64,000 bases of DNA from Candidatus Roslinia caecavium. Lineage in GTDB: Bacteria; Bacillota; Clostridia; Monoglobales; Monoglobaceae. Below the pieces are notes generated by a model. It saw only the letters and a list, made by a program, of their open reading frames with translations, did not search any database and was not told the DNA's origin. The stretch lies in contig CAJFTO010000009.1 of assembly GCA_904419955.1 (NCBI GenBank), positions 4,298 to 68,297 of the forward strand, written 5' to 3'. This document shows positions 14,890-64,000 of this stretch, in pieces. How positions within the stretch are numbered: the first letter of the stretch is position 1; every line of letters begins with the position of its first letter. The position numbers and the translations under genes were made by a program.

Positions 14890-14945
14890 CTCCCTGATTT
14901 ATGTTATATTTTTTATTAAATTATAGCAGTTTTTACTATATATAT

Positions 14946-15173: not shown

Positions 15174-15181
15174 ATTGTTTT

Positions 15182-46409: not shown

Positions 46410-46519
46410 AATATATGATTGGAGTGCATGATTATGAAATATATATCGGCAAGAGATGCAGCTCAAAATAGGTGCTAAAATGGTTGTAATTAATGCAAAC
46501 AGACAAGGAGCGAAATTGT

Positions 46520-47290: not shown

Positions 47291-47299
47291 GGTGCTACT

Positions 47300-47500
47300 A
47301 TGAAGAAATATACAATTGCGATAGAAGAAACCGTTGTAGATCAATTTGAAATAGAAGCAAATGATTTTATTGAGGCTATAGATATTGCAAAAGAAAAATA
47401 TCGTAAAGGTGAGCTTGTAGTTTCTCCTGGAGAAGTGCAATTCAGACAAATTGCTGTAATATCACCATCTTGTGATTGTACTGAATGGAGTGAATTTTAA
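47300..47500 (+). CDS. DpnD/PcfM-like small protein
   Basis: 66 aa, starting 10 nt after the DpnI-like stop, with RBS GAGGTG. Pattern MKKYTIAIEETVVDQFEIEANDFIEAIDIAKEKYRKGELVV resembles the DpnD/PcfM family. Same position as dpnD in the pneumococcal DpnI cassette. Confidence 0.6.
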   Translation: MKKYTIAIEETVVDQFEIEANDFIEAIDIAKEKYRKGELVVSPGEVQFRQIAVISPSCDCTEWSEF

Positions 47501-48156: not shown

Positions 48157-48166
48157 GGTGCGAACA

Positions 48167-48940: not shown

Positions 48941-49076
48941 CCTACAGATAGAAAGGAAAGCCAAAATTATTACATCCATTATTCAACAAAGTCTGAAAAT
49001 TTAATGGGTCTATCCCGTATTTTGGAGTTTGCACAAAACGCGGGATAGATCCTCCAAGTGTGAAAAAACGCGTATA

Positions 49077-49247
49077 TTATTGCTTCTTACACCCGTTCTT
49101 TTCGCATGTAATAGCTTGAGGTGTTTCAACCCAATCTTCAGGATTATCATCTATTCTGGCGCCACAACCAGTATAATTTCCTTTTCTTACATGAATTTTG
49201 CCATTTTCAGACTTGCTTGTGTCTTTTCCGATATATTTTATGTTCAC
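49077..49247 (-). CDS. 56-aa Cys-containing small protein of unknown function
   Basis: GTG start 5 nt after GGGAGGTG. Sequence VNIKYIGKDTSKSENGKIHVRKGNYTGCGARIDDNPEDWVETPQAITCEKNGCKKQ. Below the ORF-track cutoff. Convergent with the TIR gene. Confidence 0.5.
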   Translation of the reverse strand: MNIKYIGKDTSKSENGKIHVRKGNYTGCGARIDDNPEDWVETPQAITCEKNGCKKQ

Positions 49248-49509
49248 ATCTTCACCTCCCTTCTTTTTGTGAGATTGTTTATAAATTGATTAGATTTTGC
49301 TTGATACAAAGTCAAATTTTTAAATTATTTCGTATTACTTTGTAGACTTCTTAAAATATTATTCGTTCTTTGATAATCATAGCTTATGTCTAACCATCAT
49401 ATTATTTATTATAACATATGAGTTTAAGTTAGTCAACTGAAAAAGATAATAAATTTCAAAAAATTATTTGCAATTATCTAACAAGTGATGTATTATTAAA
49501 TTAATTTGA

Positions 49510-49713
49510 GCGACAAAAGGAATCTTCATCACTACGGCTCAATTCTCAAAAGAGGCGCTTGATTTTGCCAAAAAGCAACTACATAGCAAAATTGTCCTCG
49601 TAGACGGGAAACAGCTGACGAAACTCATGATAGATTACGATCTCGGCGTATCTACTGTCGCGACGTACAAGGTCAAACGTATCGACTCGGATTTCTTTAA
49701 TGAAGACGTATGA
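49510..49713 (+). pseudogene. C-terminal remnant of an Mrr-type (type IV) restriction endonuclease
   Basis: Reads GIFITTAQFSKEALDFAKKQLHSKIVLVDGKQLTKLMIDYDLGVSTVATYKVKRIDSDFFNEDV, which parallels the E. coli Mrr C-terminus (GVFITTSGFT..VLVDGERLVHLMIENEVGVS..DMDYFE). No upstream coding continuation (stop at 49507). GC is visibly higher than its surroundings. Confidence 0.7.
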
Positions 49714-49888
49714 TCATATCGACGCGTTTAGAAAATGAAAATTTGTACGTTTGGCACTTTTTATCGGAATCGTGCGCGTTCCGGCTCGGCTTCCAATTTT
49801 GTTGACCATGCGAATAGATTTTTTTAATCCATATGCTAAAATATTCAATATCGTTAACAAATAAATTTAAAAGTCTATATAATTTCAT

Positions 49889-49928
49889 CGCGCCTTCGCG
49901 GATCGTCCGGGAGGCGCGCAATTTTTTT
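49889..49928 (+). terminator. GC-rich rho-independent terminator downstream of the mrr remnant
   Basis: Stem cgcgccttc / gggaggcgcg followed by caattttttt. Confidence 0.6.
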
Positions 49929-50395
49929 ACCTTGGTTAAAAACTTTCAAAATTATTTGCGTTGATATTCTCGGCCTGAGAGTATATAATAGTAATTGCTT
50001 AAACTGCGCGCTCAAAGTTATACGGCCGCGTAGCCGTCCGCTACGGCGGCGTTAGGTTTCGGACGGATATTATAAAAGTTCGAGGAAGTATGGCTTCAAA
50101 GCGCTCATTTAGGGTATGGCTGAACGAATGTTGAAAAATACTTATAGATTTTTATGTAAATAGAATAAGAGGTTAGTATATAAACTAAATATATATAATG
50201 CTAAAATATATTTGATAACATAATGTTAACTCATCAATGGCCGAGTAGATTTGTCGACAGTCTTTGTAGAATGATAACGGGGAGCTGATATTACATTTTT
50301 TGTTCTCAAATAGGGTTTAGATTATTATATTTATCATTTATTACCCAGCTAATTATAGTTAGTTTGTATAAAAATAAAAAAGGAGTTGTGAAAAA

Positions 50396-51235
50396 TTGAA
50401 AATCATAACAGTTGAATTGATAGAAAATTTCAAAAATTTTTTATTTAATGAAGAAAAGGCGTTTGCAACTATTGAGAAATATGTGCATGACGTATTGAAT
50501 TTTAAAATGTGGCTATCGGGATCTGTCGTCACAAAAACAGAAGTGTTAAGATATAAGCGAGTATTAACAGAAAAATATGCGCCAACAAGCGTTAATTCTA
50601 TTATATCTTCTCTGAACAGCTTTTTCTCATATAACGAATGGTACGAATGTAAAGTTAAAACGCTTAAAATTCAACGACAGATTTTTATTAGTAAAGATAG
50701 AACGCTTACTAAAGCCGAATATGAAAGACTGCTTGCCGCGGCAAAGTATAAGGGGGACGAAAGACTATATTTACTTATGCAAACAATATGCTCTACGGGT
50801 ATTAGAGTTTCTGAATTGCGATTTGTGACAGTAGAAGCTGTTAAAAGCGGTCAGGCGATTATTAGCTGTAAAGGAAAATTGCGAGTAGTAATGCTTACAA
50901 GATTACTTTGTAAGATGCTTAAAGCTTATATAAAGGAAAATAAAATTAAACGCGGTCCTATTTTCATTACAAGAACAGGGAAACCGTTAGACCGTAGTAA
51001 TATATGGAAATTATTAAAAGGTTTATGTGAAAGAGCCGGCGTTTCAAAGAATAAGGTGTTTCCGCATAATTTGCGCCATTTATTCGCAAGAACATTTTAT
51101 TCATTACAAAAAGATATTATTAGACTTGCAGATATTCTTGGACACACAAGCGTAAATACAACCCGAATTTATACGATAGAAAGCGGAGAAGTTCACAGAC
51201 AACAGATGCAAGAACTTGGACTATTGAGATGTTAA
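50396..51235 (+). CDS. tyrosine site-specific recombinase (XerC/D-like integrase/invertase)
   Basis: 279 aa with a TTG start 10 nt after AAGGAG. SAM-like N-domain. Catalytic contexts TGIRVSEL (Arg), HNLRHLFA (His-x-x-Arg) and LGHTSVNTTRIYT (His...Tyr). Confidence 0.85.
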   Translation: MKIITVELIENFKNFLFNEEKAFATIEKYVHDVLNFKMWLSGSVVTKTEVLRYKRVLTEKYAPTSVNSIISSLNSFFSYNEWYECKVKTLKIQRQIFISKDRTLTKAEYERLLAAAKYKGDERLYLLMQTICSTGIRVSELRFVTVEAVKSGQAIISCKGKLRVVMLTRLLCKMLKAYIKENKIKRGPIFITRTGKPLDRSNIWKLLKGLCERAGVSKNKVFPHNLRHLFARTFYSLQKDIIRLADILGHTSVNTTRIYTIESGEVHRQQMQELGLLRC

Positions 51236-51237
51236 AT

Positions 51238-51267
51238 AAATTAACTACATAATTTGTCTTATGTTGT
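51238..51267. repeat. IR-L, 30-bp perfect inverted repeat arm
   Basis: aaattaactacataatttgtcttatgttgt. Begins 3 nt after the recombinase stop codon. Confidence 0.9.
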
Positions 51268-51452
51268 ATAAATGGTTAAACTATATGTAATTGCACTTTA
51301 TTAATATAGCAGAAATTTGTCGCTTTGTCAATAATTAGAGTTTAATTTAAAGAAATTTATTTAAATATTACAATAATAGATGCAAAAATCCAGACCAATG
51401 TAATAAGCGATAAGCTTCATTGGTCTAAAAGTCGTTATTGTTGTTGCTTATC

Positions 51453-51481
51453 TTGCTTTATTCGCAATATTGAGATATAAA
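51453..51481 (+). promoter_or_regulatory. promoter-like element inside the IR-bounded segment, currently facing the downstream operon
   Basis: TTGCTT (51453-51458), 17-nt spacer, TATAAA (51476-51481). Confidence 0.35.
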
Positions 51482-51507
51482 ATTATATTTTTTATAACGT
51501 CAACTTA

Positions 51508-51537
51508 ACAACATAAGACAAATTATGTAGTTAATTT
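51508..51537. repeat. IR-R, 30-bp perfect inverted repeat arm
   Basis: acaacataagacaaattatgtagttaattt is the exact reverse complement of 51238..51267. Confidence 0.9.
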
Positions 51538-52175
51538 TATGTTTTTTTAATATTATATATCGAACATTATATAAATTGGGGAAAAATTGAATTTTCGGTA
51601 TTAATATAAAAACGAAGATATTATAATACTATTGATGTAATATTAACTAAGTAGGAACTATATAAATAAATATTTTAGGAGTTTAATGAATATATATATA
51701 AATTTAATATTTATTAGACGAATTTTAGATATAATTTATATGACGTTTAACAGCATATTTTGTTTATATTAGTATAAAAAAGTTTTTAATAGCAACTGAA
51801 TTTAGAATGTCAGCGATTTTATATGGGTTGACTGCATATACGGTAAATACGCTAATAATATGATTAAAATGCAATTTAGGTTTAAAGATCTTAATAAATA
51901 AGAATAGAGTTGCTATGAAGACTGCTTTTTAGATTATAGATGAAAATTATGACGCATAACAAACTTTTTGGTGTATGGGGGATTACGCAAAATGTTTATT
52001 GCTGTATTTATACTGAGCTTTATATAAAAACAATTATACTGTGAAAGTCGTTATGCAGTCAAAGGTAGTTGAAAATGAATAATCTGATGAGTTGATAAAA
52101 TATAACAATCAAGAGCCTTATTAATAGAGTTTTAAAAACTGATTTGGTTTATTGGTTATTTGGAGAGGTTGGCAT

Positions 52176-52850
52176 ATGAAATTCAGAAACGAGTTAAAAC
52201 ACCATGTTACAGAATTTGATTTAATTGGACTTCGGCAAAGATTAAAGTTTATTGCTGAAAGAGATATTCATGCAAATGAAAATGGGATATACACCGTTAA
52301 AAGCTTATATTTTGATAATTGCTACGACAAAGCTTTAGTGGAAAAAATAGCGGGATATTCTAAAAAAGAAAAGTTTAGAATCAGATACTATAACGACGAT
52401 ACAAGTTTTATTCGCTTAGAGAAAAAAAGCAAGATCGGAGGAATGTGTTTAAAGAATAGTTGTTTAATTACTAAAGAGCAAGTAGATAAAATTATTGATT
52501 TGGATGTTTCTTGGATGGAGTTTGCTGAAGAGGAATTATTGGTTGAACTCTGGGCGAAAATGCAGTACCAATTATTGCGTCCTAAAAATATTGTTATATA
52601 TACAAGAGAGGCTTATACCTATAGGCCTGGGAATGCTCGTGTGACAATCGACTCTGATATATACGGAGAAAGCGATATTACGGGATTTTTTGATGACGAC
52701 TGGACGGGTATCAGAGTATTTCCAATGAGCATTTTGGAAGTAAAGTGGGATGAATTTTTACCTCAAATTATCAGGGACGCCGTTCAACTTGGTAATATTC
52801 AAGCACAAAATTTTTCAAAATATGCTGCGGCAAGAGTCGATGCATTTTAA
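52176..52850 (+). CDS. VTC-domain (polyphosphate polymerase / triphosphate-tunnel-like) protein
   Basis: ATG 52176 has GGAGAGG 7 nt upstream. MKFRNELKHHV..YTVKSLYFDN..KEKFRIRYYNDD..ILEVKWDEFLPQIIRD..FSKYAA matches bacterial VTC-domain proteins as I recall them. Confidence 0.75.
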   Translation: MKFRNELKHHVTEFDLIGLRQRLKFIAERDIHANENGIYTVKSLYFDNCYDKALVEKIAGYSKKEKFRIRYYNDDTSFIRLEKKSKIGGMCLKNSCLITKEQVDKIIDLDVSWMEFAEEELLVELWAKMQYQLLRPKNIVIYTREAYTYRPGNARVTIDSDIYGESDITGFFDDDWTGIRVFPMSILEVKWDEFLPQIIRDAVQLGNIQAQNFSKYAAARVDAF

Positions 52851-52916
52851 TATACGACAATTGGAACAGAAACGTTGAGTATATAATATGTTAAATTTAT
52901 GAGGGAGGATAAAAAT

Positions 52917-53597
52917 ATGACGACGTTTAATGACATTTTTAAATCGGATTTTTTAAATTCAACAAATTTGAACAGTTTTTCAGTAGTAGACACGCTGATT
53001 GCACTTGGGTTAGCGTTTGTTATAGGTATTTTTATATATCTTATATATAAGAAAACTTATAAAGGAGTTATGTATTCGGCGACTTTTGGAGTTTCGTTGC
53101 TGGCGATGTCTATGATTACGACGTTAGTTATATTAGCGGTAACCGCTAATATCGTTCTCTCTTTGGGTATGGTTGGCGCGTTGTCGATTGTTAGATTCAG
53201 AACGGCGATCAAGGAGCCGATGGATATAGCGTTTCTTTTTTGGGCGATCGCGGCCGGTATAGTATTAGGTGCGGGATTTATCCCTCTTGCTATTATAGGC
53301 TCGGTTATCATAGGCGCGGTTATTCTTATTTTTGCCAATATAAAAACAATTGGAGCGACGCCGTATATACTTATTGTAAATTGTGCGTTTCAAGCCGAAC
53401 GCAACGTTAATTATGTTATAAAACAGGAGTCTCGCAAATATCTTCTAAAATCAAAAACAGTTACCCCAAAAGGTTTAGAGTTGACATACGAAGTAAGAAT
53501 TCGAGATAAAGAAGCTTACGCTGTGAATAAATTAATAAATTTAGAAGGCGTAGGGAACGCCGTCCTGGTTAGCTATAATGGAGAATATATGTCATAG
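52917..53597 (+). CDS. DUF4956-family membrane protein
   Basis: ATG 52917 follows GAGGGAGG. Multiple TM helices. Family-typical LSIVRFRTAIKEPMDIAFLFWAIAAGI. Confidence 0.7.
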   Translation: MTTFNDIFKSDFLNSTNLNSFSVVDTLIALGLAFVIGIFIYLIYKKTYKGVMYSATFGVSLLAMSMITTLVILAVTANIVLSLGMVGALSIVRFRTAIKEPMDIAFLFWAIAAGIVLGAGFIPLAIIGSVIIGAVILIFANIKTIGATPYILIVNCAFQAERNVNYVIKQESRKYLLKSKTVTPKGLELTYEVRIRDKEAYAVNKLINLEGVGNAVLVSYNGEYMS

Positions 53598-53610
53598 TTG
53601 GAGTTGTATT

Positions 53611-55533
53611 ATGTTAGGATCAAAAAAATTTGAAAAAATAATAGTATGGCTTGTGATTATGGCGTTGGTTTTTTCATTGGTTATAGTATGTTTTCCAAAT
53701 ATATTTTCTCGGATTTCAAAAGATAGGATTGAAGAAGAGTATCCGGTTAAGATTTTTGAAAAAGACGTCGTTAATATAAAAATTACGGCTGATGAAAACG
53801 ATTGGAATGGCATGCTGGAAAATCGAATGTCAAAGCCCTATATCTCATGCGATATAGAAATCGATGGAAAAGAATTTAAAAATGTCGGATTGAGACCGAA
53901 GGGAAATTCAAGTTTAACGAGTATTCAGGGAGACAGAATAAGCTATAGATTGGACTTCGATCATTACATCGATAATCAAACTTGTTACGGCTTGGAGCAA
54001 ATGGCTTTGAATAATTTACAAGCCGACGCCACATATATGAAGGATTATATCGCTTACGATTTGATGGCATATGAAGGCGTAAACGCACCGCTACATACAT
54101 TTGCGTTTATAACGATAAACGAACAGCCTTTTGGAGTTTATCTGGCGGTCGAGGTATATGACGAAGACTATTTGTCAAGAGTTTACGACGATATAAATAT
54201 TGAGCTATACAATGTAAAAAATTCGGGTATGGATGAGTTTGAAAACGCGATTGTCGATCCTGAAACCGGCACAGTGATAGAATCTCAGGGGGTAGGAGAA
54301 GTTATGAATATGGGCGGTCCAGGCGGGCCTCCGCCGCAGGGCGGTCCCATGCCGCCTGGGGGTCAGTCTCCTATGCCTCCGCCAAACGGGCAAGTTCCTG
54401 ATGCGGTCGGTATGCGGGCGCCAAATGAGGAAAACATACCACAACCGCCTCCGGGGTCTGAAAGTGGAGGCGGAGATTTAGTTTATGTTGACGACTCAAC
54501 AGAAAGTTACAGCGCTATATTTGCAAACGCAGTCTCCAAGCGCGCGAATGCAGAAGATTTTGCAAGAGTTATTAGAGCGATAAAATATTTAAATAAAGAA
54601 AACGTCTCTAATGAAGAGTTAGAACAATACTGGGATATCGACGCTGTATTAAGATATTTGGCGGTTCACGCTTTTATGGTTAATGGCGATAGTTATACAG
54701 GTAATATGATGCAAAACTATTTTTTAGCTGAGCGAGACGGTAAGATTACTATTCTACCGTGGGATTATAATTTATCGTTCGGCGCGTTTGGAGGAGGTCC
54801 GGGCGGCGCGCCTCCTGAAATGCAGATTGATAGCGACAAGATTGTCGGATCTGATGTTGAAACAGCTCAAGTAAATAATGAAACGATAGAGGCAATAAAT
54901 CATCCCATAGACACGCCCACCATAGGGGTATCTATGGAATCAAGACCGCTCGTTTCAGTTTTGCTGAGCAGGGACGATTATAAGGAAAAATACCATCAGT
55001 ATTTAGATGAATTAACTATATATGCGTCGGGCGATTTTATTAACAAACTTGAAGCGGTTGAAAAGGCTATCTATCCGTATATTGAGAGAGAAACGGTTTC
55101 TTTCTTTACGCCCGAAGAACATAAAGAGGCCTTTAAAGTATTGAAGGATTTTTTAGAACTTCGTTGCCGAAGCATTCAATGCCAACTGAATGGAGAAATT
55201 CCGTCAGAATTGGAGCTACAGAATGGCGCTGATTTAATAACTGCAGATTTTTCTATTAGCGAGATGGGATCTATGGGCGGACCGGGAGATATGCTGCCGG
55301 GAGAAAATGGAGAAGGCGCAATGGCTCCGCCGCAGCCGCCGGGAGAAAATGGACAGGGCGTAATGGCTCCGCCGCAGCCGCCGAATGACGATGGTCAAGG
55401 AGGAATGGTTCCGCCGCCGGGTATGTCTGGAACGATGCAAAATGAGAGTAATAATGATATTACAATCGCGATTGCTTTAGTTATTTTATGCATCATGTTT
55501 ATTGGCGTTAAATTATTTAAGCGAAATTACTAG
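53611..55533 (+). CDS. CotH-family atypical kinase, N- and C-terminally membrane anchored, with two Pro/Gly-rich inserts
   Basis: ATG 53611 has GGAG 7 nt upstream. N-terminal anchor. CotH-like IDGKEFKNVGLRPKGNSSL..YRLDFDHY..LNNLQADATYMKDYIAYDL. Pro-rich tracts near 54300-54480 and 55264-55440, the latter with a 42-bp tandem duplication at 55300-55383. C-terminal TM. Confidence 0.75.
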   Translation: MLGSKKFEKIIVWLVIMALVFSLVIVCFPNIFSRISKDRIEEEYPVKIFEKDVVNIKITADENDWNGMLENRMSKPYISCDIEIDGKEFKNVGLRPKGNSSLTSIQGDRISYRLDFDHYIDNQTCYGLEQMALNNLQADATYMKDYIAYDLMAYEGVNAPLHTFAFITINEQPFGVYLAVEVYDEDYLSRVYDDINIELYNVKNSGMDEFENAIVDPETGTVIESQGVGEVMNMGGPGGPPPQGGPMPPGGQSPMPPPNGQVPDAVGMRAPNEENIPQPPPGSESGGGDLVYVDDSTESYSAIFANAVSKRANAEDFARVIRAIKYLNKENVSNEELEQYWDIDAVLRYLAVHAFMVNGDSYTGNMMQNYFLAERDGKITILPWDYNLSFGAFGGGPGGAPPEMQIDSDKIVGSDVETAQVNNETIEAINHPIDTPTIGVSMESRPLVSVLLSRDDYKEKYHQYLDELTIYASGDFINKLEAVEKAIYPYIERETVSFFTPEEHKEAFKVLKDFLELRCRSIQCQLNGEIPSELELQNGADLITADFSISEMGSMGGPGDMLPGENGEGAMAPPQPPGENGQGVMAPPQPPNDDGQGGMVPPPGMSGTMQNESNNDITIAIALVILCIMFIGVKLFKRNY

Positions 55534-55557
55534 CAAAAACAGGAGTTGAAAATTCCT

Positions 55558-56115
55558 ATGGAACAAGATAATGGATATGTATTGGAGCAATCAAGAGACG
55601 ACAAATTAAAGATGTTAGGCGCGCTTTGTTATAATTTATATATAGACGGCGTTATGATTTTTCCTGAGATGAATGAAACGGTTAATGATATAAAAAACGT
55701 GTTAACTTATTTGCTGGTCTTGAGGAAAAACAATATCAACGCTGATTATTTGAAGATACAGGAATCCGGTTTGAGCGAAAAGATTCAAGAGTTGGGATGT
55801 ATTTGCTATAACCTTTATGTCGATAGTAAATTATTTAATAGTAAAGTACTATCGCTATGCGATTCGATATCGTCAATAAATCATGAGATAAAAAATGGTT
55901 TAGAAGCGGCGTCGCAAGGCAGTTCTGAGGTTCAAGAGCGTGAAGATCTCAAGAAAATGAAAGGCGAGTATAGAAATGTAACTAAAAGTAAGCTGAAGGT
56001 AATCTGTCCGTATGGAATGGAACCTATTCCAATTAATTATAAAAAGTGCGCGTGCGGTTATAAAAATAGAGCTTCGGCAAAATACTGCGGCAAATGCGGC
56101 GCAAAATTAGCGTAA
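55558..56115 (+). CDS. hypothetical cytoplasmic protein with an internal duplication and a C-terminal double zinc ribbon
   Basis: Two related segments, LGALCYNLYIDGVMIFPEMNETVNDIKNV and LGCICYNLYVDSKLFNSKVLSLCDSISSI. The tail reads CPYG..CACGYKN..YCGKCGAKL. Confidence 0.6.
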   Translation: MEQDNGYVLEQSRDDKLKMLGALCYNLYIDGVMIFPEMNETVNDIKNVLTYLLVLRKNNINADYLKIQESGLSEKIQELGCICYNLYVDSKLFNSKVLSLCDSISSINHEIKNGLEAASQGSSEVQEREDLKKMKGEYRNVTKSKLKVICPYGMEPIPINYKKCACGYKNRASAKYCGKCGAKLA

Positions 56116-56128
56116 GGAGGAAGATGGA

Positions 56129-56833
56129 ATGAGTTTAGACGATATTATAAGACTTTTTGCATGTATTTCATTAATTCTTGGCGCGGTAGAGTGCTTTGCC
56201 GGATTTAAAATCATGAAAGCGACTCTTTCGATTTGGGGGCTTATAATTGGCGCGGCGCTTGGAGTTTTAATAGGCGTCTCAGCAGATAATACGATATTGG
56301 GATTTATGTTTGTACTGCTGTTTGGTATAGGATTAGCGGTTTTATCTTTTAAACTATATTTAGCTGGAATATTTATACTTACGGCGTTTTTGTCAACGGT
56401 AGCGATATATATATTATTTGAAAATTTGTTTATCGCTCTATTAATCGCCGCTATAGTAGGAATACTGGCCATATATTTTGTAAAGCCTGTAGTAATCGTA
56501 ACTACCTCGTTCTCAGGAGCAGGGATTATATTATCTTCAGCATATATAATAATGGATTTGGGGGTTAACGCTAATCCTATAATCACCGCAATTTTATGGA
56601 TACCAATGGCTTTGGCGGGTATTGGGTGTCAATATATTACAACACAGAGCTCAAAGAATGAGAGGAGCGGGATAAGATTTTCTCAAAGATTACCAAATCC
56701 ATCGAGAACGTTTAGTGAAAGAAAATATCCCGGGATGCAGAGAGCGTATAGAAATTTTTGTATTAATTGCGGTTGCGAGCTATTTGGTATAACAGGTAAG
56801 TGTCCGCGATGTGGATTTAGTTTTGACGACTAA
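56129..56833 (+). CDS. polytopic membrane protein (DUF4203/TMEM198-like) with a C-terminal cytoplasmic zinc ribbon
   Basis: AAGGAGG 8 nt before the ATG. About 6-7 TM helices. The tail reads FCINCGCEL..KCPRCGFSF. Confidence 0.65.
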   Translation: MSLDDIIRLFACISLILGAVECFAGFKIMKATLSIWGLIIGAALGVLIGVSADNTILGFMFVLLFGIGLAVLSFKLYLAGIFILTAFLSTVAIYILFENLFIALLIAAIVGILAIYFVKPVVIVTTSFSGAGIILSSAYIIMDLGVNANPIITAILWIPMALAGIGCQYITTQSSKNERSGIRFSQRLPNPSRTFSERKYPGMQRAYRNFCINCGCELFGITGKCPRCGFSFDD

Positions 56834-56845
56834 GAGGAAATAGAT

Positions 56846-58309
56846 ATGAGAAAACGTTTAAACAATAAAATTATATTTATGACTGCTTTAATTAGCTTGA
56901 TAAGTTTTTCATTTATAGGTATACCCAACGCGTATGCGTCTTATTATAAAATACCCGAACAGCAAAACTTTGATCCTAATATAGCCGCAAATGAGATAGA
57001 AGCGATAGTGAATCAAAAGTCTGTTATTAGTAGCAGCGCTATCGATAATATAATCTATATTGATGGAGCGGCAGTCGTTCAAAAGTATAATGAGGCAATA
57101 TCAGAAATCAAAGAATATGTCGACAAGCTTAATGGTAGCGGTATGTATCTAAATCGAGATTTAGTAAACGTAGTAACTATCCAAGCGGATGGGATAAATA
57201 TTTCGGAATATGTTGAAATATATATTGATTCAGCGGCTTTAGATCAAATAGCAAATATAGATACGCTGAAGATAACCTTAGAAAATAGTAACGAGTATAT
57301 TTCATTGAACAATGAAAGTATAAGTTATATCGCGGCCAACTATAATGAATTTAGAGTTCAAGTAAAAAGTCTATCCGATACTTATACAATACGTTTTATA
57401 GATAAAACAAATAGTATAATAAGTAAGTACGACGTTAATATAAAAGTTGGATTGCCGGCAAGTCACAGCGAGCAAACGGTCTATCTGTTTACGAATAATA
57501 CTCAAGAAAATTGGGGAGGTCAATATAACAGCGTTGACGGTTCGATAGAGTTTATGACTCGGTATAGCGGCGAATATAACGTCGCCTCTCCCGAAATCGT
57601 TATAGAAGACATAAATAGTTTAGATGAATACGAAAAACAGGCGATCAGGTTTATGGTTGTCAGAGGATATTTTGAAGTAGACGATAAGAGGTTTGGCCCT
57701 GACGACGTCTTAACAAGATATGATTTTGCAGAGTCTTTGGTAAGGATGTTTTTTGCCTTAGACAGCGATGCGCAATGTTCTTTTACCGATGTGGATAAAA
57801 CGTATTATAGATATGTAGCAGCTTCGGAACAGAGTAATATTGTTCGTGGATTTGACGACGGAACATTTAGAGGCAATGAGAACGTAACGGTTGAGCAGGT
57901 GATCGCGCTAACAGCTCGTACTATAAATCAAAAGAATGGGTATGTTTATCCTGAAAGCATAGATAAGTATTTGAATTTCACAGACGATAATGTTATAGAC
58001 GAGTGGGCTAAAAAAGAAGTGGCTTTAGCTATTAGAGAGGGAATTTATTTTAATGATATGAACTTAAAATTTATGGATAGTATTTCGCGTAAAGACGCTG
58101 CCGTTGTGCTATATAGACTATTTATGATTATGAATAATACCCCGAAACCTACGGACGTTATTGAATATAGCGTCGATGAATGCTATAATCATAAAACGTT
58201 TTGGAATATGACGAGCGCGATTGTTATTGGAGCGACGGTTACTTGCGTTGATATGGCGGCTCTGGGACTATCGATCTTTCTTATAAAAAAGAAGAAAAGA
58301 AGAGCATAA
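56846..58309 (+). CDS. secreted protein with three SLH-like repeats and a C-terminal TM anchor
   Basis: Signal peptide ..GIPNAYA. SLH-like segments are FMVVRGYFEVDD..LTRYDFAESLVRMF, FTDVDKTYYRYVAASEQSNIVRGFDDGTFRGNENVTVEQV and FTDDNVIDEWAKKEVALAIREGI. Ends with a TM helix plus KKKKRRA. Confidence 0.65.
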   Translation: MRKRLNNKIIFMTALISLISFSFIGIPNAYASYYKIPEQQNFDPNIAANEIEAIVNQKSVISSSAIDNIIYIDGAAVVQKYNEAISEIKEYVDKLNGSGMYLNRDLVNVVTIQADGINISEYVEIYIDSAALDQIANIDTLKITLENSNEYISLNNESISYIAANYNEFRVQVKSLSDTYTIRFIDKTNSIISKYDVNIKVGLPASHSEQTVYLFTNNTQENWGGQYNSVDGSIEFMTRYSGEYNVASPEIVIEDINSLDEYEKQAIRFMVVRGYFEVDDKRFGPDDVLTRYDFAESLVRMFFALDSDAQCSFTDVDKTYYRYVAASEQSNIVRGFDDGTFRGNENVTVEQVIALTARTINQKNGYVYPESIDKYLNFTDDNVIDEWAKKEVALAIREGIYFNDMNLKFMDSISRKDAAVVLYRLFMIMNNTPKPTDVIEYSVDECYNHKTFWNMTSAIVIGATVTCVDMAALGLSIFLIKKKKRRA

Positions 58310-59100
58310 TGGTATCGATTAAGAGTGAGATAATTAGAAAAGAAAAGTTTATGTTTGATATTTCTTATATCAACGAACGAGGCGGAAGGGTTGTCAATGA
58401 AGATTCTATATTAGTTGAAGATATGGAAGAAAAAATATTTATTTCTATAGCTGATGGTTTAGGCGCGCACGGCGGCGGAGATCTTGCTTCTAAAGTAGCG
58501 ATCGACGTTGCCAGAAAGGAATATGCGCGGATTAAAAAAATCGATCAAAAAAATATATATAGGATTTTTGAAGTAATTAATGAAGCGATAGTAGCTCAAC
58601 AAACGGAAGAATTGAAGATGAAAACAACATTATCGTGCGTTCTGTGTAGAAACAAATATATATATTCAGCCCATCTGGGGGATACGCGCGTGTATTTTTT
58701 TAAGGATAATAGATTACGATTCATGACGAAGGATCACAGCGTCGCTTATGAAGAAATCACGAAAAATCACGGCTCTTTAGAAGATATAAGAAAAGATCCG
58801 AAAAGGCATATTTTAAAAGCCGCGTTAGGGGTAGGAAAAATTAGACAGCCGGATATTTTTAAACAGAAAATTAAGAATGACGCCGCAGTTTTAATTTGTT
58901 CCGACGGCTTTTGGGAATACGTTAACGAGAATGAAATGATCGAAACATTGACCGATACGATAACCGCTCGCGAGTGGCTTGGAGCAATGATGAAATATCA
59001 TTCGGAAAAAGCGGATATGTTTAATGACAATTATTCGGCAATTTGCCTAAGAATTACAAAAAATAAAGGAGGAAAAACTTTATGGAATACAAAGGTATGA
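58309..59100 (+). CDS. PP2C-family Ser/Thr phosphatase (1)
   Basis: The ATG overlaps the upstream stop (TAATG); an alternative start is at 58351. Motifs IADGLGAHGGGDLAS and LICSDGFWEY. Confidence 0.8.
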   Translation: MVSIKSEIIRKEKFMFDISYINERGGRVVNEDSILVEDMEEKIFISIADGLGAHGGGDLASKVAIDVARKEYARIKKIDQKNIYRIFEVINEAIVAQQTEELKMKTTLSCVLCRNKYIYSAHLGDTRVYFFKDNRLRFMTKDHSVAYEEITKNHGSLEDIRKDPKRHILKAALGVGKIRQPDIFKQKIKNDAAVLICSDGFWEYVNENEMIETLTDTITAREWLGAMMKYHSEKADMFNDNYSAICLRITKNKGGKTLWNTKV

Positions 59101-60497
59101 ATTTATGCGACTTTTGTTTTGAACCTATCAGACCAGGATGCATTTGTACCAACTGCGGTCTTACCCATGAAAATTATAATGCCGAAGCTGGATTGCTAAT
59201 GCCGGGAACTAATCTGTTAGGTAAGTACATTATCGGCCGTGTATTAGGGAGGGGAGGCTTTGGCGCAACGTATTTAGCTTATTCAAGCGAGCGCAATAAA
59301 GTAGTGGCTATTAAGGAATATTATCCTACCGGCATTGCCAATCGAGCAAAAGGCGAGGAAAAAATTTCTATCGTTTCCGCCGAAAAAAGAAAGGTGTTTG
59401 AAAAGGGTGCGAATAGGTTTTTTGAAGAAGCTAAGACTATGTCCAAATTCAATACAAATAAGAATATAGTATCAGTGTATGAATTTTTCTATGCTAACGA
59501 CACCGTATATTATTCGATGGAGTATTTGAAGGGAATCGATCTTAAAGGATATATAAACAAAAAGGGCGGCAGGTTAAGCGAAGCGGAAGCGGTAACGATA
59601 ATGAGAGGCGTTTGCGAAGCTTTGGTAGCGGTACATAGCACCCAAACTCTTCACAGAGATATATCGCCGGATAATATTTTTATTTGTACAAACGGCGATG
59701 TGAAGCTAATTGATTTTGGAGCTGCAAAGCAAGTTATAGGCGATGCGCAGCAAGTGTATTCAGTGGTTGTTAAACAAGGCTTCGCGCCGGCGGAACAGTA
59801 TAAGAGTACCGGAAAACAAGGCGTGTGGACGGATATTTATGCTGTTGGGGCTTCAATGTATTATGCGGTCACAGGTAAAATTCCTCCTGACGCAATGAAT
59901 AGAGTAGAGCATCCAGACATTGTATTTGATCCGGCGTTAAACATTTCGCCTCAGTTTGCCAACATAATAAAAAAATGTTTACAGAGTAAGATTGAGGATC
60001 GTTATCAAAGCGCGATAGAGTTACTTGGGGCGCTGAGCGAATTAAATATTCAGAATGTCGCGATCGGCGGCGCCGAATACGTTCAAAATATATATAACGG
60101 AGTATCTTCAGGTCTGCAGGGAAACGCTGTGAACTTTGGCGGTAATAACGAGTTTGTCGCTCAACCGCAGACGGGGTACAATCCGTATGAGAATAATAAC
60201 AGCCAGTACCCTAATTCGCAGATACAGGCTCAAAATGTTTCATATTACCCGCCGTCCGGATACCCGCAATCCGGATATCCTCAATCTGGATATCCTCAGT
60301 CGCAGCATCAAATCTCGCAGTATGGTGAAAGTAAAGAAAAATCCGGAATAATTAAAGGTCTGATAATTGGCGTATGCGCATTAATAATAATAGCGTTAAT
60401 AATTATTCTTATCGTTAATTTGGTAGGTCCTCAACAGCCTATGCCGCCGCAGCCGCCGATTGGCGGACAGCCTATGCAGCCTATGCCGCCTCAGTAA
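59082..60497 (+). CDS. Hanks-type Ser/Thr kinase with N-terminal zinc ribbon, Q/P/Y-rich linker, one TM helix and a short Pro-rich exterior tail
   Basis: AAGGAGG 9 nt before the ATG; 19-nt overlap with the PP2C gene. CDFCFEPI..CICTNCGL, GRGGFGATY, VAIKEY, HRDISPDNIF, DFGAAK, (SGYPQ)x3, TM, then PQQPMPPQPPIGGQPMQPMPPQ. Confidence 0.85.
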   Translation: MEYKGMNLCDFCFEPIRPGCICTNCGLTHENYNAEAGLLMPGTNLLGKYIIGRVLGRGGFGATYLAYSSERNKVVAIKEYYPTGIANRAKGEEKISIVSAEKRKVFEKGANRFFEEAKTMSKFNTNKNIVSVYEFFYANDTVYYSMEYLKGIDLKGYINKKGGRLSEAEAVTIMRGVCEALVAVHSTQTLHRDISPDNIFICTNGDVKLIDFGAAKQVIGDAQQVYSVVVKQGFAPAEQYKSTGKQGVWTDIYAVGASMYYAVTGKIPPDAMNRVEHPDIVFDPALNISPQFANIIKKCLQSKIEDRYQSAIELLGALSELNIQNVAIGGAEYVQNIYNGVSSGLQGNAVNFGGNNEFVAQPQTGYNPYENNNSQYPNSQIQAQNVSYYPPSGYPQSGYPQSGYPQSQHQISQYGESKEKSGIIKGLIIGVCALIIIALIIILIVNLVGPQQPMPPQPPIGGQPMQPMPPQ

Positions 60498-60535
60498 CGA
60501 GCAAAGCGGGTTTAAATATGGAAGGGGTGATGTGA

Positions 60536-61423
60536 TTGGCGTTTATGAATAATAAGTATACTTCCGGTTCAGAGAAGTCTGATTCTTCAGAAAATAATAA
60601 TTCTGAAAACATCAAGGCTGGGGTCGAATTAAAGCTTACTTCAAACGCTTCAATGTATATAAATACAGGAAATAGTCAAAATCAAGGCGCCAGACCATAT
60701 CAAGAAGACTCATTTGGTTATTCAAATATCATAGACAGCAATGTTGTCTCGAAAAAAGGAGTTTTCGCGATTTTGTCTGATGGAATGGGAGGATTGACCA
60801 ATGGAAAAAACGTGGCGGATTATGTAGTGCAAACGTCTATTGCTATGTTTGATTCAATGAATCCTCAGACCGATATCAGCAAACAATTGGAGAATATAGT
60901 TGGGTACATAAATAGCAGCGTATGCGAACAGTATGGCGCCGATGATGGAAGTAGTAAAGCTGGAGCGACAATGGTTTTGGCGTATATTTTCAAAAATCGT
61001 ATTTACTGGATAACTGTTGGAGATAGTAGATTATACTGCTTCAGAAATGGTAATTTGCTACAAATGAATGAAGATCACGATTATAAGAATCAGTTGTATC
61101 GAGAGTATATAAATGAAGGCGGAAATCTTAAAGACGTCGAGGAAGACGAGCAGAAGGATAGTTTAGTTTGCTTTATTGGGAAAAAAGAGATACCTTATGT
61201 GGATGTAAGCATAAGAGGTTATAAAATTAAACCGTCAGATACATTTATTTTGTGTACAGACGGCATATATAACGGAATATCTGAAGACGCCATGAAAGAT
61301 ATACTATCGAACTGCGACGCGCAAACTGCAAGCGAGGAAATTATATCAAACGTTTTAAGTTCGAGATTTCCGGGACAAGATAATATGACCGTTATGGTTA
61401 TAAAATGTGAGAGAAATAATTAA
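60536..61423 (+). CDS. PP2C-family Ser/Thr phosphatase (2)
   Basis: TTG 60536 (or ATG 60545). Motifs AILSDGMGGLTNG, ITVGDSRLY, ILCTDGIYN and GQDNMTVMVI. Confidence 0.8.
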   Translation: MAFMNNKYTSGSEKSDSSENNNSENIKAGVELKLTSNASMYINTGNSQNQGARPYQEDSFGYSNIIDSNVVSKKGVFAILSDGMGGLTNGKNVADYVVQTSIAMFDSMNPQTDISKQLENIVGYINSSVCEQYGADDGSSKAGATMVLAYIFKNRIYWITVGDSRLYCFRNGNLLQMNEDHDYKNQLYREYINEGGNLKDVEEDEQKDSLVCFIGKKEIPYVDVSIRGYKIKPSDTFILCTDGIYNGISEDAMKDILSNCDAQTASEEIISNVLSSRFPGQDNMTVMVIKCERNN

Positions 61424-61456
61424 ATTATGTTTTAGTCTGAAAGGAAGGTTTTAGTA

Positions 61457-62647
61457 ATGAAAAAAACTAAGAGATTAAAAAGGGCGATAAGCTTAGTAGT
61501 CGTAGCGGTATTGGCGGTGTCGCTAACAATGACGGTTACAGTATCGGCGACCTCTGCGTCTGACGCGAAAAACAGCGTTGTTGCGGTTATCAGTCAGGAC
61601 GGAATGAGTTATGGAACAGGGTTTGCTATTGGGGAAGTTGGAAAGCCGGTTGAATATATTGTTACAAACAATCATGTAGTACAAGGCGATATTGGATACA
61701 CAACGGCAACAGTTGCATTTGATTTAGCTTCTAATGAAATGATGCTTGCAAACGTATATTTTTATGACGCGGCAAAGGATATAGCCGTTTTAAAGTTACC
61801 GCAGGCTACTGACAAAAGACAGGCGATGGTACTTTGTACAATGGAAAATGTCGATCCGGACGACGAGTTTGCAGCTTTAGGTTATCCTGGAAATCAGATA
61901 ACTGATTGGCCTAAGTATAATATTGACGATATTACAATTACAAAGGGCGGTATCAAAAAGGTCGACAGAGTTAACGGACTTGACGTTTATATGTTGGATC
62001 TTATAATTACACATGGTAATTCGGGCGGCCCTCTCGTTAATTCTCAGGGAGAAGTTGTTGGTATTAATACGTTTGGTTTAAATAACGACAACTATGCAAT
62101 AGCTATCGACGAGCTTTTAAAGGTTATTGATACCGATAGGATCCCCGTTACGTTGCATGGAGGTATTAATTGGTTCTTAGTTGCAGGCGGAATAGTAGCG
62201 ATTATAATTATTGCATTAGTCATAATTCTTATCGTTCGCAAAACGGGATACGGCAGAAGCAACGACGTTGGAACTCAACCGGTTCCGCCTCCTGTGAATA
62301 ATGCGACGAAACAACAGACTCCGCCGGTAAATAAGGCGAGCGCAAGAATTATAGCTATTGGAGGAACGCTTAACGGTAAGAGATATTCTGTTTCCGGCAC
62401 GGTGAAAATCGGCAGAGACGCTACAAAATGCGCTATAGCTTTTCCTGTAAACACACAAGGAGTAAGCGCCGTTCATTGTGAAATTTCATTCGATGGAACA
62501 GTGTGCTATGTAAAAGACTTGAATTCGAGTTATGGCACGTTCGCCATCGACGGGAAGAAGCTGGAGCCCAATGTACCTCAAATACTAAAATCGGGCGAAA
62601 AGTTCTATTTGGCAAGTCCTGAAAATACGTTTGAGGTAAGATTTTAG
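61457..62647 (+). CDS. bitopic protein: extracytoplasmic trypsin-like (S1/Trypsin_2) protease, TM helix, cytoplasmic FHA domain
   Basis: Signal/anchor at the N-terminus. Catalytic contexts TNNHVV (His), DIAVLKL (Asp) and HGNSGGPLVN (Ser). TM WFLVAGGIVAIIIIALVIILIV. FHA reads VKIGRDATKCAIAF..VSAVHCEI..CYVKDLNSSYGTF. Confidence 0.8.
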   Translation: MKKTKRLKRAISLVVVAVLAVSLTMTVTVSATSASDAKNSVVAVISQDGMSYGTGFAIGEVGKPVEYIVTNNHVVQGDIGYTTATVAFDLASNEMMLANVYFYDAAKDIAVLKLPQATDKRQAMVLCTMENVDPDDEFAALGYPGNQITDWPKYNIDDITITKGGIKKVDRVNGLDVYMLDLIITHGNSGGPLVNSQGEVVGINTFGLNNDNYAIAIDELLKVIDTDRIPVTLHGGINWFLVAGGIVAIIIIALVIILIVRKTGYGRSNDVGTQPVPPPVNNATKQQTPPVNKASARIIAIGGTLNGKRYSVSGTVKIGRDATKCAIAFPVNTQGVSAVHCEISFDGTVCYVKDLNSSYGTFAIDGKKLEPNVPQILKSGEKFYLASPENTFEVRF

Positions 62648-62668
62648 TTGACGTTTGGAGTGATTTGA

Positions 62669-64000
62669 GTGAATTACAACAATCTTTGTTACAGATGTTT
62701 TTGCGAAAAGCCGATTAAAGAAAAGCCTTGTCCGAAATGTGGATATAAATATAATCCAAGCGCGACGTCTCAAAATTATTTGAGCCCAGGTTCTCTTCTT
62801 CACAATAGGTATATTGTGGGTATAGCGCTGGGCGCAGGCGGTTTTGGAATAACATATAAATGTCTTGATACAAAGATTGGCGGCATATGCGCGATAAAGG
62901 AATATTTTCCGTCGAACTTTGCGTTAAGAACTAACGCGAACAGATCCGTATTGGTAGCGGAACAAAATTTGGAGCGGTACAATAAGATAATGAAGCGTTT
63001 TGTTGAAGAAGCAGAGTTAGTCAAAAAGTTAAATCATAGAAACGTGATCAAAATATATGATAGCTTTTTTGAAAACAATACCGCCTATTATGTTATGGAA
63101 TATTGCGATGGCATTGATTTGCGCAGATATACTAATAATTTTAGTAGAAAGCTGGAATATGAGGAAGGTATGAATTTACTTTATCAGATTATGAACGGCT
63201 TAGAATACATACACGCAAAAGGAATTTTACATCGCGATATTGCTCCGGATAATATTTATGTAACAAAAAACAATTATGTGAAGATTTTAGATTTTGGTTC
63301 TGCAAGAAGCGAGATGGATCAATTTAACAGAGAATTATCGGTTATTGTTAAAGTGGGTTACGCTCCTATTGAACAATACGGCGGACATGGGAAACAGGGC
63401 CCTTACACAGATATTTATGCGCTTGGCGCAACATTTTATCACTTGTTCACTTCAAAAATGCCGATAGAATCAACACAACGGGTCGCTGAAGATAATTTGG
63501 AGGAGTTTTCTCGTCTCCGTCCGGATTTGCCTGACAATTTAAAATATTGTATAGAAAAATCTATGGAATTGACTACTGCGAAGAGAATATCGAGTATAGC
63601 GGAGATGAAAAGCATACTGGAATTGGATAATAAACCTTCGAAAAACAATAAAATAGCGCCGCCCATATTGCCTGAACAAAATAATAAAAAAGATACTGTC
63701 ATAAAAAAACAGGAAAAATATAAAACTGCAAGCATTGGCATGAGGTTGGGCGCTTACATGGTAGACCTATTGTTGTGGAGCGTGATTTATTTTACAATAT
63801 TATTTGGCGTTTTTGAAATAAGCGATACGTCGTTTGAATTGGGCGTGTTATTTCCAGTTATTTTTACGCTTATCAATACAATTTCAGAATTGTTGGCTTC
63901 GACAACGGTTGGAAAAGCAATGATGAAAATGTATATTCGAGGTAAATCAAGCGTCGACGTACTTCCAAGTCAGATACTATTGAGAAATATTATTAAGCTT
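62669..64000 (+). CDS. Hanks-type Ser/Thr kinase with N-terminal zinc ribbon and C-terminal RDD-like membrane domain (3' partial, runs off the window)
   Basis: Not in the ORF track because no stop falls in the window. GTG 62669 has GGAG 8 nt upstream, and the frame stays open for 444 codons to base 64000. CYRCFCEKPI..CPKCGYKY, GAGGFGITY, CAIKEY, HRDIAPDNIY, DFGSAR, then hydrophobic RLGAYMVDLLLWSVIYF.. Confidence 0.8.
   Translation, partial: MNYNNLCYRCFCEKPIKEKPCPKCGYKYNPSATSQNYLSPGSLLHNRYIVGIALGAGGFGITYKCLDTKIGGICAIKEYFPSNFALRTNANRSVLVAEQNLERYNKIMKRFVEEAELVKKLNHRNVIKIYDSFFENNTAYYVMEYCDGIDLRRYTNNFSRKLEYEEGMNLLYQIMNGLEYIHAKGILHRDIAPDNIYVTKNNYVKILDFGSARSEMDQFNRELSVIVKVGYAPIEQYGGHGKQGPYTDIYALGATFYHLFTSKMPIESTQRVAEDNLEEFSRLRPDLPDNLKYCIEKSMELTTAKRISSIAEMKSILELDNKPSKNNKIAPPILPEQNNKKDTVIKKQEKYKTASIGMRLGAYMVDLLLWSVIYFTILFGVFEISDTSFELGVLFPVIFTLINTISELLASTTVGKAMMKMYIRGKSSVDVLPSQILLRNIIKL

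Follow-up and report, generated by a model that had tools for sequence, protein, structure and literature searches.

The 64,000-nucleotide (nt) stretch analysed here, from the genome of Candidatus Roslinia caecavium, an uncultured bacterium of the gut Clostridia (contig CAJFTO010000009.1, positions 4,298 to 68,297; hereafter the window) ends in an operon that joins genes for a VTC-domain protein, a DUF4956 membrane protein and a CotH kinase to genes for two PP2C phosphatases, two zinc-ribbon Hanks kinases and an exterior protease with a cytoplasmic FHA domain. With slightly better than even confidence, we take this operon to be the truncated copy of an envelope locus that is phase-variable and horizontally moved and that links a surface-polymer module with a circuit of threonine phosphorylation. 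The observations behind this reading are the gene content, a synteny conserved in relatives, a sharply placed truncation point, a foreign base composition and homology to a DNA switch that inverts; the reading as a whole is an interpretation drawn from the comparative genomics of a truncated copy. Comparison with related species indicates that the operon is the 5′ part of a 17–20-gene envelope locus, whose 3′ half appears to have been cut off in the window lineage at a serine-recombinase element, and that it very probably sits behind a DNA-inversion on/off switch.

An operon of eleven genes

The open reading frame list and a check of spacing place eleven tightly packed genes on the forward strand between position 52176 and approximately position 64087. 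Genes 6 and 7 meet in a TAATG at 58307–58311, genes 7 and 8 overlap by 19 nt (59082–59100), and the remaining gaps are no longer than 48 nt, including those in the VTC–DUF4956–CotH order of genes 1–3. An earlier reading of this stretch, made from the sequence alone, had reported the same packing and both junctions, all of which are reproduced; its expectation of at least eleven genes, continuing past the window end, is corrected by contig extension. Contigs L001 and L002 (L numbers denote the loci and assemblies compared) encode an identical protease-FHA protein, and in them gene 11 ends ~87 nt beyond the window; L001 is identical to the window over their overlap. Since the gene that follows this stop codon is a large serine recombinase in convergent orientation, the operon here consists of exactly eleven genes and is a real unit:

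52176..52850, + strand: gene 1, VTC-domain protein, polyphosphate-polymerase-like, cytoplasmic (Pfam VTC 3.9e-33 over its full length; no transmembrane (TM) segment)
52899..53597, + strand: gene 2, DUF4956 membrane protein, its C-terminal region MgtC/ACT-like (Pfam DUF4956 2.1e-11; at least 3 TM segments)
53578..55533, + strand: gene 3, exterior CotH kinase, TM-anchored at both ends and containing Pro-rich linkers (Pfam CotH 9.8e-50)
55546..56115, + strand: gene 4, 189-residue cytoplasmic protein, four-helix bundle with a small C-terminal zinc ribbon (Pfam Zn_Ribbon_1 1.3e-5)
56129..56833, + strand: gene 5, membrane protein with 4 TM-like segments, ending in a CxxC...CxxC zinc ribbon (CxxC at residues 211 and 225)
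56846..58309, + strand: gene 6, secreted wall-binding SLH protein, TM-anchored at its C terminus (Pfam SLH 3.2e-14; TM 9–27 and 455–473)
58309..59100, + strand: gene 7, PP2C phosphatase (Pfam PP2C_2 6e-14; DG/GD/DG/DN metal-binding motifs in the sequence)
59082..60497, + strand: gene 8, zinc-ribbon Hanks Ser/Thr kinase with a short Pro-rich exterior tail (Pkinase 5.9e-40; VAIK/HRD/DFG)
60536..61423, + strand: gene 9, PP2C phosphatase (Pfam PP2C_2 3.4e-11)
61457..62647, + strand: gene 10, exterior S1 (HtrA/MarP-like) protease, TM segment and cytoplasmic FHA domain (Trypsin_2 9.7e-23, FHA 1.2e-12)
62669..64000, end ~87 nt further on, + strand: gene 11, zinc-ribbon Hanks kinase with a fused RDD membrane domain, 472 residues in L001 (Pkinase 1.1e-39, RDD 1.3e-6)

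Every domain named in the sequence-only reading (kinase, PP2C, FHA, protease, CotH, VTC, DUF4956 and SLH) was found by Pfam. In a hydrophobicity scan, the kinase domains, PP2Cs, VTC protein, gene 4 product and FHA domain come out as cytoplasmic, and the CotH and S1 protease domains lie outside the membrane together with the body of the SLH protein. The four zinc-ribbon proteins proposed earlier carry their CxxC pairs as described, except that the 189-residue gene 4 product has CxC...CxxC rather than two CxxC motifs. As had also been noted, a vWA component is missing: Pfam gives no vWA match in any of the eleven proteins, and there is none in the precomputed Pfam annotations of the related loci examined. 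An assignment to the vWA/TerY-P systems was rejected for this reason.

The distinctive part of the circuit is the gene 10 product, an exterior S1 protease with a cytoplasmic FHA tail. TM segments at 11–29 and 242–260 give it a signal–S1–TM–FHA architecture, with no PDZ domain. Across 14 diverse homologues the protease triad H73/D108/S189 is invariant, as are FHA residues G319, R320, S337 and H340, and N390 is at least 90% conserved; by sequence, the FHA domain thus has the predicted phosphothreonine-binding signature GR...SxxH...N. The S1 domain matches the sensor domain of RsgI9 in the PDB (7sjy, 1.5e-6) and also DegS, the whole-protein NCBIfam scores lie under the family cut-offs (MarP, 84.5 bits against 250; degP_htrA, 64.6 against 416), and the FHA part has a weak match to FhaB/FipA Rv0019c. 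Both phosphatases score above gathering for PP2C_2 and for PP2C and retain metal-binding Asp motifs. The catalytic Lys (in VAIK or ICAIK in the translations), HRD and DFG are present in both kinases, neither of which has an exterior sensor domain in the hydrophobicity scan; the gene 8 kinase has CxxC motifs at 9 and 22 and a single TM segment at 427–445.

Among the first six genes, the CotH gene more likely starts at 53611 than at 53578, and its product has TM segments at 21–39 and 628–646. The catalytic aspartates of Bacillus subtilis CotH are D228 and D251 (PMC7821199), and alignment to 5JD9 places vnGDsy and lPWDYn there, at a distance of 23 residues. A 42-bp repeat coding for Pro-rich sequence is present 2.9 times at 55296–55417. 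Gene 2 has a weak MgtC/SapB match. VTC, DUF4956 and CotH genes are known as accessory genes that directly adjoin the pel exopolysaccharide operons of Gram-positive bacteria (PMC7112168; 10.1101/2024.04.20.589940), including those of non-sporulating streptococci and bifidobacteria (PMC7112168). Neither pelDEA(DA)FG nor a DUF4832 partner adjoins the operon or any related locus; its neighbours are a recombinase upstream and the zinc-ribbon, SLH and kinase genes downstream.

The family of gene 4 is tiny, with 42 protein clusters found, as expected of a clade-specific addition. Its AlphaFold2 model has a predicted local distance difference test (pLDDT) score above 90 over helices 6–127, and a Foldseek comparison of this model with the PDB returned no significant match. 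In the family alignment the motif LGxxCYNLY(V/I)D is duplicated and nearly invariant, once per helical hairpin, and the tail PYGMEPIP...C-x-CGY-x-N...CxxCG is invariant. Gene 5 has a weak TM7S3/TM198 Pfam match. The PDB matches of gene 6 are the SLH domains of SbsB and Sap, and a single-sequence structure model of its product was unusable (pLDDT 34.7).

A longer locus in related species

Neighbourhoods of protease-FHA homologues, together with a tblastn matrix of all window proteins, revealed the same gene order in five further lineages: VTC, DUF4956, a variable gene X, zinc-ribbon protein, TM zinc-ribbon protein, SLH protein, PP2C, kinase, PP2C, protease-FHA and kinase-RDD. Their genomes are named as Oscillospiraceae, Ruminococcus or Eubacterium metagenome-assembled genomes (MAGs). 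The identities below are those of the protease-FHA protein:

L010/L011: 80% identity, gene X is CotH
L012: 70% identity, gene X is CotH
L176/L177: 63% identity, gene X is CotH
L013: 48% identity, gene X is of the Cthe_2159 type
L174/L175: 46% identity, gene X is of the Cthe_2159 type

The first PP2C is missing from L174, and in L012 a TetR-like gene stands directly before the VTC gene. At the CotH position L174 encodes a 748-residue protein (2424–4670) of the Cthe_2159 family, a beta-helix, carbohydrate-binding family, and gene X of L013 (1436–4003; 855 residues) is 43–48% identical to it. This exchange of CotH for a Cthe_2159 protein in two lineages leaves the VTC–DUF4956 pair as the stable element of the module, with an exchangeable exterior enzyme.

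In every one of these relatives 6–9 more genes follow kinase-RDD. They encode an RDD-FHA protein, a ~300-residue single-TM protein (in some cases Cu_amine_oxidN1-like), a small FHA protein, a second Trypsin_2-FHA protein, a third PP2C and further surface proteins with SpaA/CarboxypepD_reg, LprI, YARHG and sometimes Peptidase_M4 domains. Nucleotide similarity between the window lineage and L010, L012 and L176 breaks no more than 4 nt after the gene 11 stop codon, at the point where the relatives begin the RDD-FHA gene and the window lineage enters the recombinase gene. A break at this stop codon, together with the longer loci of the relatives, indicates that the window copy has been truncated, by insertion or by replacement. 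Every contig found ends inside the serine-recombinase/vanG-like element, so that its far side is not spanned. Neighbourhood analysis therefore bears out the conserved co-occurrence for which the sequence-only reading had proposed a test, in five lineages at 46–80% protease-FHA identity, and revises two of its other suggestions: the operon is not self-contained, given the 6–9 genes that relatives carry and this copy lacks, and CotH is not a fixed part of the machine.

A widespread core cassette

Comparison of gene neighbourhoods shows the kinase, PP2C and protease-FHA genes to be an enlarged version of a clostridial cassette that is widespread and in most cases has no VTC triad. In its minimal form this cassette consists of a small FHA protein, a PP2C, the S1 protease-TM-FHA protein, a second PP2C and one or two kinases, as found at the following loci:

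L007: Paludicola sp. MB14-C6, CP133133 (45%)
L014: a Ruminococcus MAG
L015: a Clostridia bacterium MAG
L016: Cohnella yongneupensis

An intermediate locus, L009 (54%), lacks the VTC triad and the SLH protein and keeps the remainder; it lies directly downstream of spo0A (4696–5517) and has genes for a CsaB-like pyruvyl transferase, DUF5693 and MurJ after it. In L098 the kinase-RDD protein and a Cu_amine_oxidN1 surface protein are already within the cassette.

When metagenomes were scanned with the FHA portion of gene 10, 80 loci were recovered; they are not all independent, and many come from the human gut. The small FHA and PP2C genes lie directly upstream in 48 of the 54 loci with enough upstream DNA, a kinase gene lies within 3.5 kb downstream in 39 of 48, and homologues of genes 1–6 are absent from all 80, including 32 with at least 8 kb of upstream DNA. 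A scan of genome contigs with the whole protease-FHA alignment, which in effect used generic trypsin motifs, gave mainly HtrA loci that are not related; only L014–L016 were useful. Different loci have unrelated genes on either side of the minimal cassette, which thus behaves as a unit complete in itself. Neither the protease-FHA architecture nor the switch described below has a relative in the plasmid and phage collections. Full-text literature searches found no paper describing a small FHA–PP2C–protease-FHA–PP2C–kinase cassette. The kinase/PP2C/FHA part of the operon is thus not unique to the locus and comes from the widespread cassette.

A probable DNA-inversion switch upstream of the operon

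From the recombinase gene upstream to gene 1, the window contains the components of a probable invertible promoter:

50396..51235, + strand: Xer-like tyrosine recombinase, 279 residues, candidate invertase (Pfam Phage_integrase 5.9e-29)
51238..51267, no strand assigned: left inverted repeat of 30 nt that begins 3 nt past the stop codon of the recombinase, 100% complementary to 51508–51537
51268..51507, no strand assigned: 240-nt segment between the repeats, putatively invertible, in the OFF orientation, homologous to a 239-nt segment of L189/L190
51303..51331, − strand: putative sigma-70-like promoter, TTGACA-17-TG-TATATT, pointing away from the operon (11/12 consensus match, extended −10)
51379..51429, − strand: terminator-like hairpin and U-run, upstream of the promoter on the same strand (−17.3 kcal/mol, z = −4.9, then GGAUUUUUG)
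51508..51537, no strand assigned: right inverted repeat, 30 nt, a perfect pair with the left repeat
51538..52175, + strand: AT-rich leader, 638 nt, between the switch and gene 1 (no open reading frame longer than 36 residues)

No such 30-nt repeat pair is expected by chance (0 expected). The putative promoter is a pattern match in a region without an overall excess of such sites, and it is conserved in the homologous switch discussed below; the hairpin stem AGACCAATG/CATTGGTCT is conserved in relatives. As assembled, the promoter faces the recombinase gene, the OFF state for the operon, and this orientation is found in the window and in L003–L006, that is in all five assemblies of the locus, which are nearly clonal and not all independent (L003 comes from the same scaffold as L001, itself identical to the window). 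Rfam finds nothing between 45000 and 64000 at E ≤ 1 and nothing in the whole window at gathering score, so the leader holds no known riboswitch, and the leader contains no remnant of the TetR-like gene that trails the switch in relatives.

The recombinase has only sub-threshold Xer/invertase matches in NCBIfam and belongs to a family of more than 8000 relatives of ~279 residues. Two of these, P0266 (69% identity) and P0196 (73%), have an inverted-repeat pair at the same position, enclosing 239–253 nt. The 239-nt segment of the P0196 switch lies in one orientation in L189, L191, L193 and L195, and partially in L194 and L196, and it is flipped in L190, where both flanks are 100% identical; two contigs stop exactly at the inner edge of the repeat. 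Inversion of the P0196 switch is thus directly evidenced by both orientations. L192 is also flipped, its right flank not being comparable; a 37-nt inverted repeat reaching into its recombinase flank (5836–6148) looks like a fold-back assembly artefact, and we do not count this contig as firm evidence. The P0196 repeat, AACCACATAATTTGCCTTATGTGGT, is nearly the same as the window repeat, AACTACATAATTTGTCTTATGTTGT, and its interior shares the promoter and hairpin with the window, the promoter pointing toward the downstream genes in the flipped form. Near-identical repeats, a shared interior and the two orientations of P0196 together argue that the window carries a member of a family whose close relative inverts, from which we infer that this particular copy can also invert.

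Recombinase, inverted repeats and promoter–terminator cassette recur in L180–L198 as a portable switch widespread in gut Clostridia, usually followed by a small TetR-like gene and then by varied cargo. In L180 the TetR-like gene is accompanied by SLH, transglutaminase and LRR surface proteins, in L190 the cargo is a DUF87/TrwB-like ATPase, and Cu_amine_oxidN1 surface proteins are among the cargo as well.

The island and its surroundings

The host part of the window (1–45700), with housekeeping genes such as GroEL, GlmS, PurF and GuaA and glycoside-hydrolase genes, has a guanine-plus-cytosine (GC) content of 48.3%, as against 32.5% in 45700–52175, 38.3% in the operon and ~35% in the relatives with the full locus. 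The low-GC island begins directly after guaA, and recombinases stand on both sides of the operon. These features fit an operon placed on a horizontally acquired island. In L001 (12659–21191) the element that follows gene 11 comprises the 532-residue large serine recombinase with a DUF4368 domain, HTH_16 and sigma-70 r4 genes and a vanG-like cluster (Acyl_transf_3 plus Ala racemase, vanT-like; VanY; D-Ala-D-Ala ligase; VanW). The complete locus of L174 also ends at a large serine recombinase, 35% identical to that of L001 and followed by housekeeping genes, which suggests that the locus travels as cargo of such elements. A tRNA scan found no tRNAs and hence no tRNA attachment site, and no att-like direct repeats linking the guaA end to the recombinase end were found. 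Both the horizontal acquisition and the phase variability proposed from sequence alone agree with these results, the former with the GC values, the guaA neighbour and the flanking recombinases, the latter with the recombinase, the perfect 30-nt repeats, the internal promoter and the homologous switch seen both ways.

The island opens with a defence-type cluster made up of a DpnI-like methyl-dependent restriction enzyme (46493–47290), a truncated N6/N4 DNA methylase (47731–48156; 141 residues, with a match limited to the model's first half) and a DUF1883-TIR protein (48122–48940). In the host part, the glycoside hydrolases at 10771–21337 include a 1372-residue GH116-like protein with CBM6 and F5/8 domains and a 2051-residue GH3 protein with CBM6 and a C-terminal rhodanese domain. 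An SLH-anchored M13 peptidase is encoded at 38888–41248, and this second SLH protein indicates that SLH wall anchoring is native to the host.

Proposed mechanism and alternatives

We picture the locus as three layers. The first would be a surface-polymer module in which the VTC-like polyphosphate polymerase and the DUF4956 membrane protein are joined by a membrane-anchored exterior enzyme, CotH here; the second, a clade-specific trio of the helical bundle with zinc ribbon, the multi-TM protein with zinc ribbon and the SLH wall anchor; and the third, the expanded clostridial cassette of PP2Cs, membrane Hanks kinases with N-terminal zinc ribbons, one of them RDD-fused, and the S1 protease-TM-FHA protein. 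In the scheme that we infer, with its substrates, its direction of signalling and its role for polyphosphate, the kinases would phosphorylate threonines on themselves or on membrane partners and the cytoplasmic FHA domain of the protease would dock on those phosphothreonines, coupling the cytoplasmic phosphorylation state to the exterior protease or to its ligand-binding state. The PP2Cs would reset the system, the VTC/DUF4956/CotH module would make or modify an anionic component of the envelope or matrix, and the whole set would be turned ON or OFF by inversion of the 240-nt promoter segment through the adjacent tyrosine recombinase. The eukaryotic VTC complex makes polyphosphate and passes it through the membrane. 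A bolder version of the scheme, to which we attach little probability, is a mobile, switchable circuit that would phosphorylate targets on both faces of the membrane, polyphosphate from VTC and DUF4956 serving the surface-anchored CotH outside as phosphoryl donor or anionic scaffold while the Hanks kinases and PP2Cs control the protease through its FHA domain, with the core cassette as a new signalling device widespread in gut Clostridia.

Several results weigh against an intact, working locus of this kind. The switch is OFF in all five assemblies, which fits a silent or decaying locus, and the flipped form of the exact window switch was not found in a JGI metagenome scan, which returned 0 matches in either orientation with a pattern that recovers the window's own switch. 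Across a strain background of 0–3 substitutions per 12.8 kb, the three changes seen are all in cotH: the same 10-bp deletion at 53857–53866, at a GAAA microhomology, frameshifts the gene in L002 and L004, and L005 has lost one 42-bp unit of the Pro-rich repeat. A frameshifted cotH in two of five other assemblies again fits silence or decay. The small FHA, RDD-FHA, second protease-FHA and third PP2C genes are missing nearby, so the circuit may be incomplete, and the presence of a non-kinase in the place of CotH in relatives weakens, by comparison of loci, any model that requires CotH. Scans for promoters and terminators inside the operon gave no excess over chance and speak neither for nor against internal units.

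The copy in this window may be silent or decaying, and in the stronger form of that view the operon is cargo reduced to a non-functional remnant that has lost its 3′ half, is held silent and is gathering lesions. Truncation exactly after gene 11, the uniformly OFF switch and the two cotH lesions on an otherwise nearly identical background favour it, but all eleven frames are intact in the window and in L001/L003, with their catalytic motifs retained, the lesions are confined to the one gene that relatives exchange, and the absent 3′ half may lie past the inserted element; we judge a mere remnant improbable. Somewhat unlikely, yet deserving more weight, is a sensor that works from outside in: the exterior S1 domain of gene 10 would, like that of RsgI9 or DegS, mainly sense a ligand (polysaccharide, matrix or damaged wall protein), its FHA domain would relay the bound state to the kinases and PP2Cs, and CotH or Cthe_2159 proteins together with the SLH protein would be co-receptors for plant or host glycans. 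The S1C domain of RsgI9, which our S1 domain matches in addition to DegS, has been described as a cellulose-binding sensor (PMC12203970), a Cthe_2159 protein occupies the CotH position in L174/L013, and the kinases themselves have no exterior sensor domains. The invariance of the H73/D108/S189 triad nevertheless argues for real proteolysis, and the locus contains no sigma or anti-sigma factor and no transcription factor to take the signal.

The position of the locus directly after the DpnI-like enzyme, the methylase fragment and the DUF1883-TIR protein, its foreign and phase-variable character and the matches of its kinase domains to the PADLOC mad6, PD-T4-6 and Stk2 models raise the question of an anti-phage or conflict system, acting by kinase-based abortive infection or by surface masking within a defence island, in the manner of Stk2, PD-T4-6, the MADS kinases or the TerY-P/vWA–kinase–PP2C sets. 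These PADLOC and NCBIfam matches, however, reflect the generic kinase domain and fall far under the family cut-offs (MAD6, 162 bits against 460; PglW, 49 against 990), and the partner genes of MADS, PD-T4-6, Stk2 and BREX PglW are all absent from the locus. There is no vWA, nuclease, NTPase or toxin effector, the majority of the proteins are membrane-bound or exterior, and among relatives the chromosomal surroundings of the locus vary and contain genes for surface proteins rather than for defence, so that we hold a defence function to be quite improbable. A role in sporulation or the spore coat, suggested by CotH as a spore-coat kinase family and by the spo0A neighbour of L009, was rejected as scarcely credible: CotH here carries a signal anchor at its N terminus and a TM segment at its C terminus, which put it on the exterior of the vegetative membrane, it is replaced by Cthe_2159 proteins in relatives, the triad occurs beside pel in non-sporulating streptococci and bifidobacteria, and L009 itself lacks the triad. 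We therefore retain the truncated, switchable envelope locus as the preferred reading, at the modest confidence given at the outset.

Comparison with known systems

The third layer resembles the actinobacterial FhaA–FhaB(FipA)–PstP–RodA–PbpA–PknA–PknB cluster, which likewise brings together membrane Hanks kinases, a PP2C and FHA proteins, one of them TM-anchored, in one envelope operon. Here, however, RodA and PbpA are missing, the kinases have no PASTA sensor, the FHA domain is fused to an exterior S1 protease, zinc ribbons and an RDD domain are added, and two soluble PP2Cs stand in place of a single TM PP2C. As a membrane-tethered exterior HtrA-type S1 domain tied to envelope stress or polysaccharide signalling, the gene 10 product recalls Mycobacterium tuberculosis MarP, Escherichia coli DegS and Clostridium thermocellum RsgI9, from which it differs in its partner domain, FHA instead of four TM segments (MarP), a PDZ domain (DegS) or an anti-sigma domain (RsgI9). 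All family-level scores being under cut-off, both the Fha/Pkn cluster and these proteases are analogies and not memberships. Zinc-ribbon Hanks kinase, PP2C and FHA genes also share an operon in the vWA–kinase–PP2C(–FHA) sets (the TerY-P triad; the actinobacterial ZnR-kinase/PP2C/vWA sets of Kaur et al. 2020, PMC7159879; Deinococcus DRA0331–0334), in contrast to which the present locus has no vWA protein and carries the exterior protease, SLH and VTC module instead.

With the pel accessory set (Whitfield et al. 2020, PMC7112168) the first layer shares a secreted CotH, a cytoplasmic VTC protein and a TM protein with an ACT-like tail, all adjacent. In this case, however, there are no pel genes and no DUF4832, the set is joined to a kinase/PP2C/FHA cluster, CotH is membrane-anchored at both ends and the third gene is exchangeable with Cthe_2159. 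The switch is built like the invertons of gut bacteria, such as the RecV switches of Clostridioides difficile and the capsule switches of Bacteroides, in having an adjacent tyrosine recombinase, inverted repeats and a short segment with a putative promoter before a surface-related operon; both orientations are seen in the homologous P0196 switch and not in the exact copy of the window. It differs in belonging to a distinct recombinase/inverted-repeat family of Oscillospiraceae-like Clostridia, with a built-in terminator–promoter pair and varied cargo.

Significance

If confirmed, the core cassette, which is common in Clostridia of the gut and of digesters, would be a new means of tying threonine phosphorylation in the cytoplasm to a protease or sensor on the exterior. 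The stable wiring of VTC, DUF4956 and CotH to this cassette in one clade would provide a second independent context, besides pel, in which to study the function of the set. The portable recombinase–promoter switch, if confirmed, would give ON/OFF control of envelope loci in abundant uncultured gut Firmicutes and would bear on their surface heterogeneity, on phage adsorption and on immune recognition.

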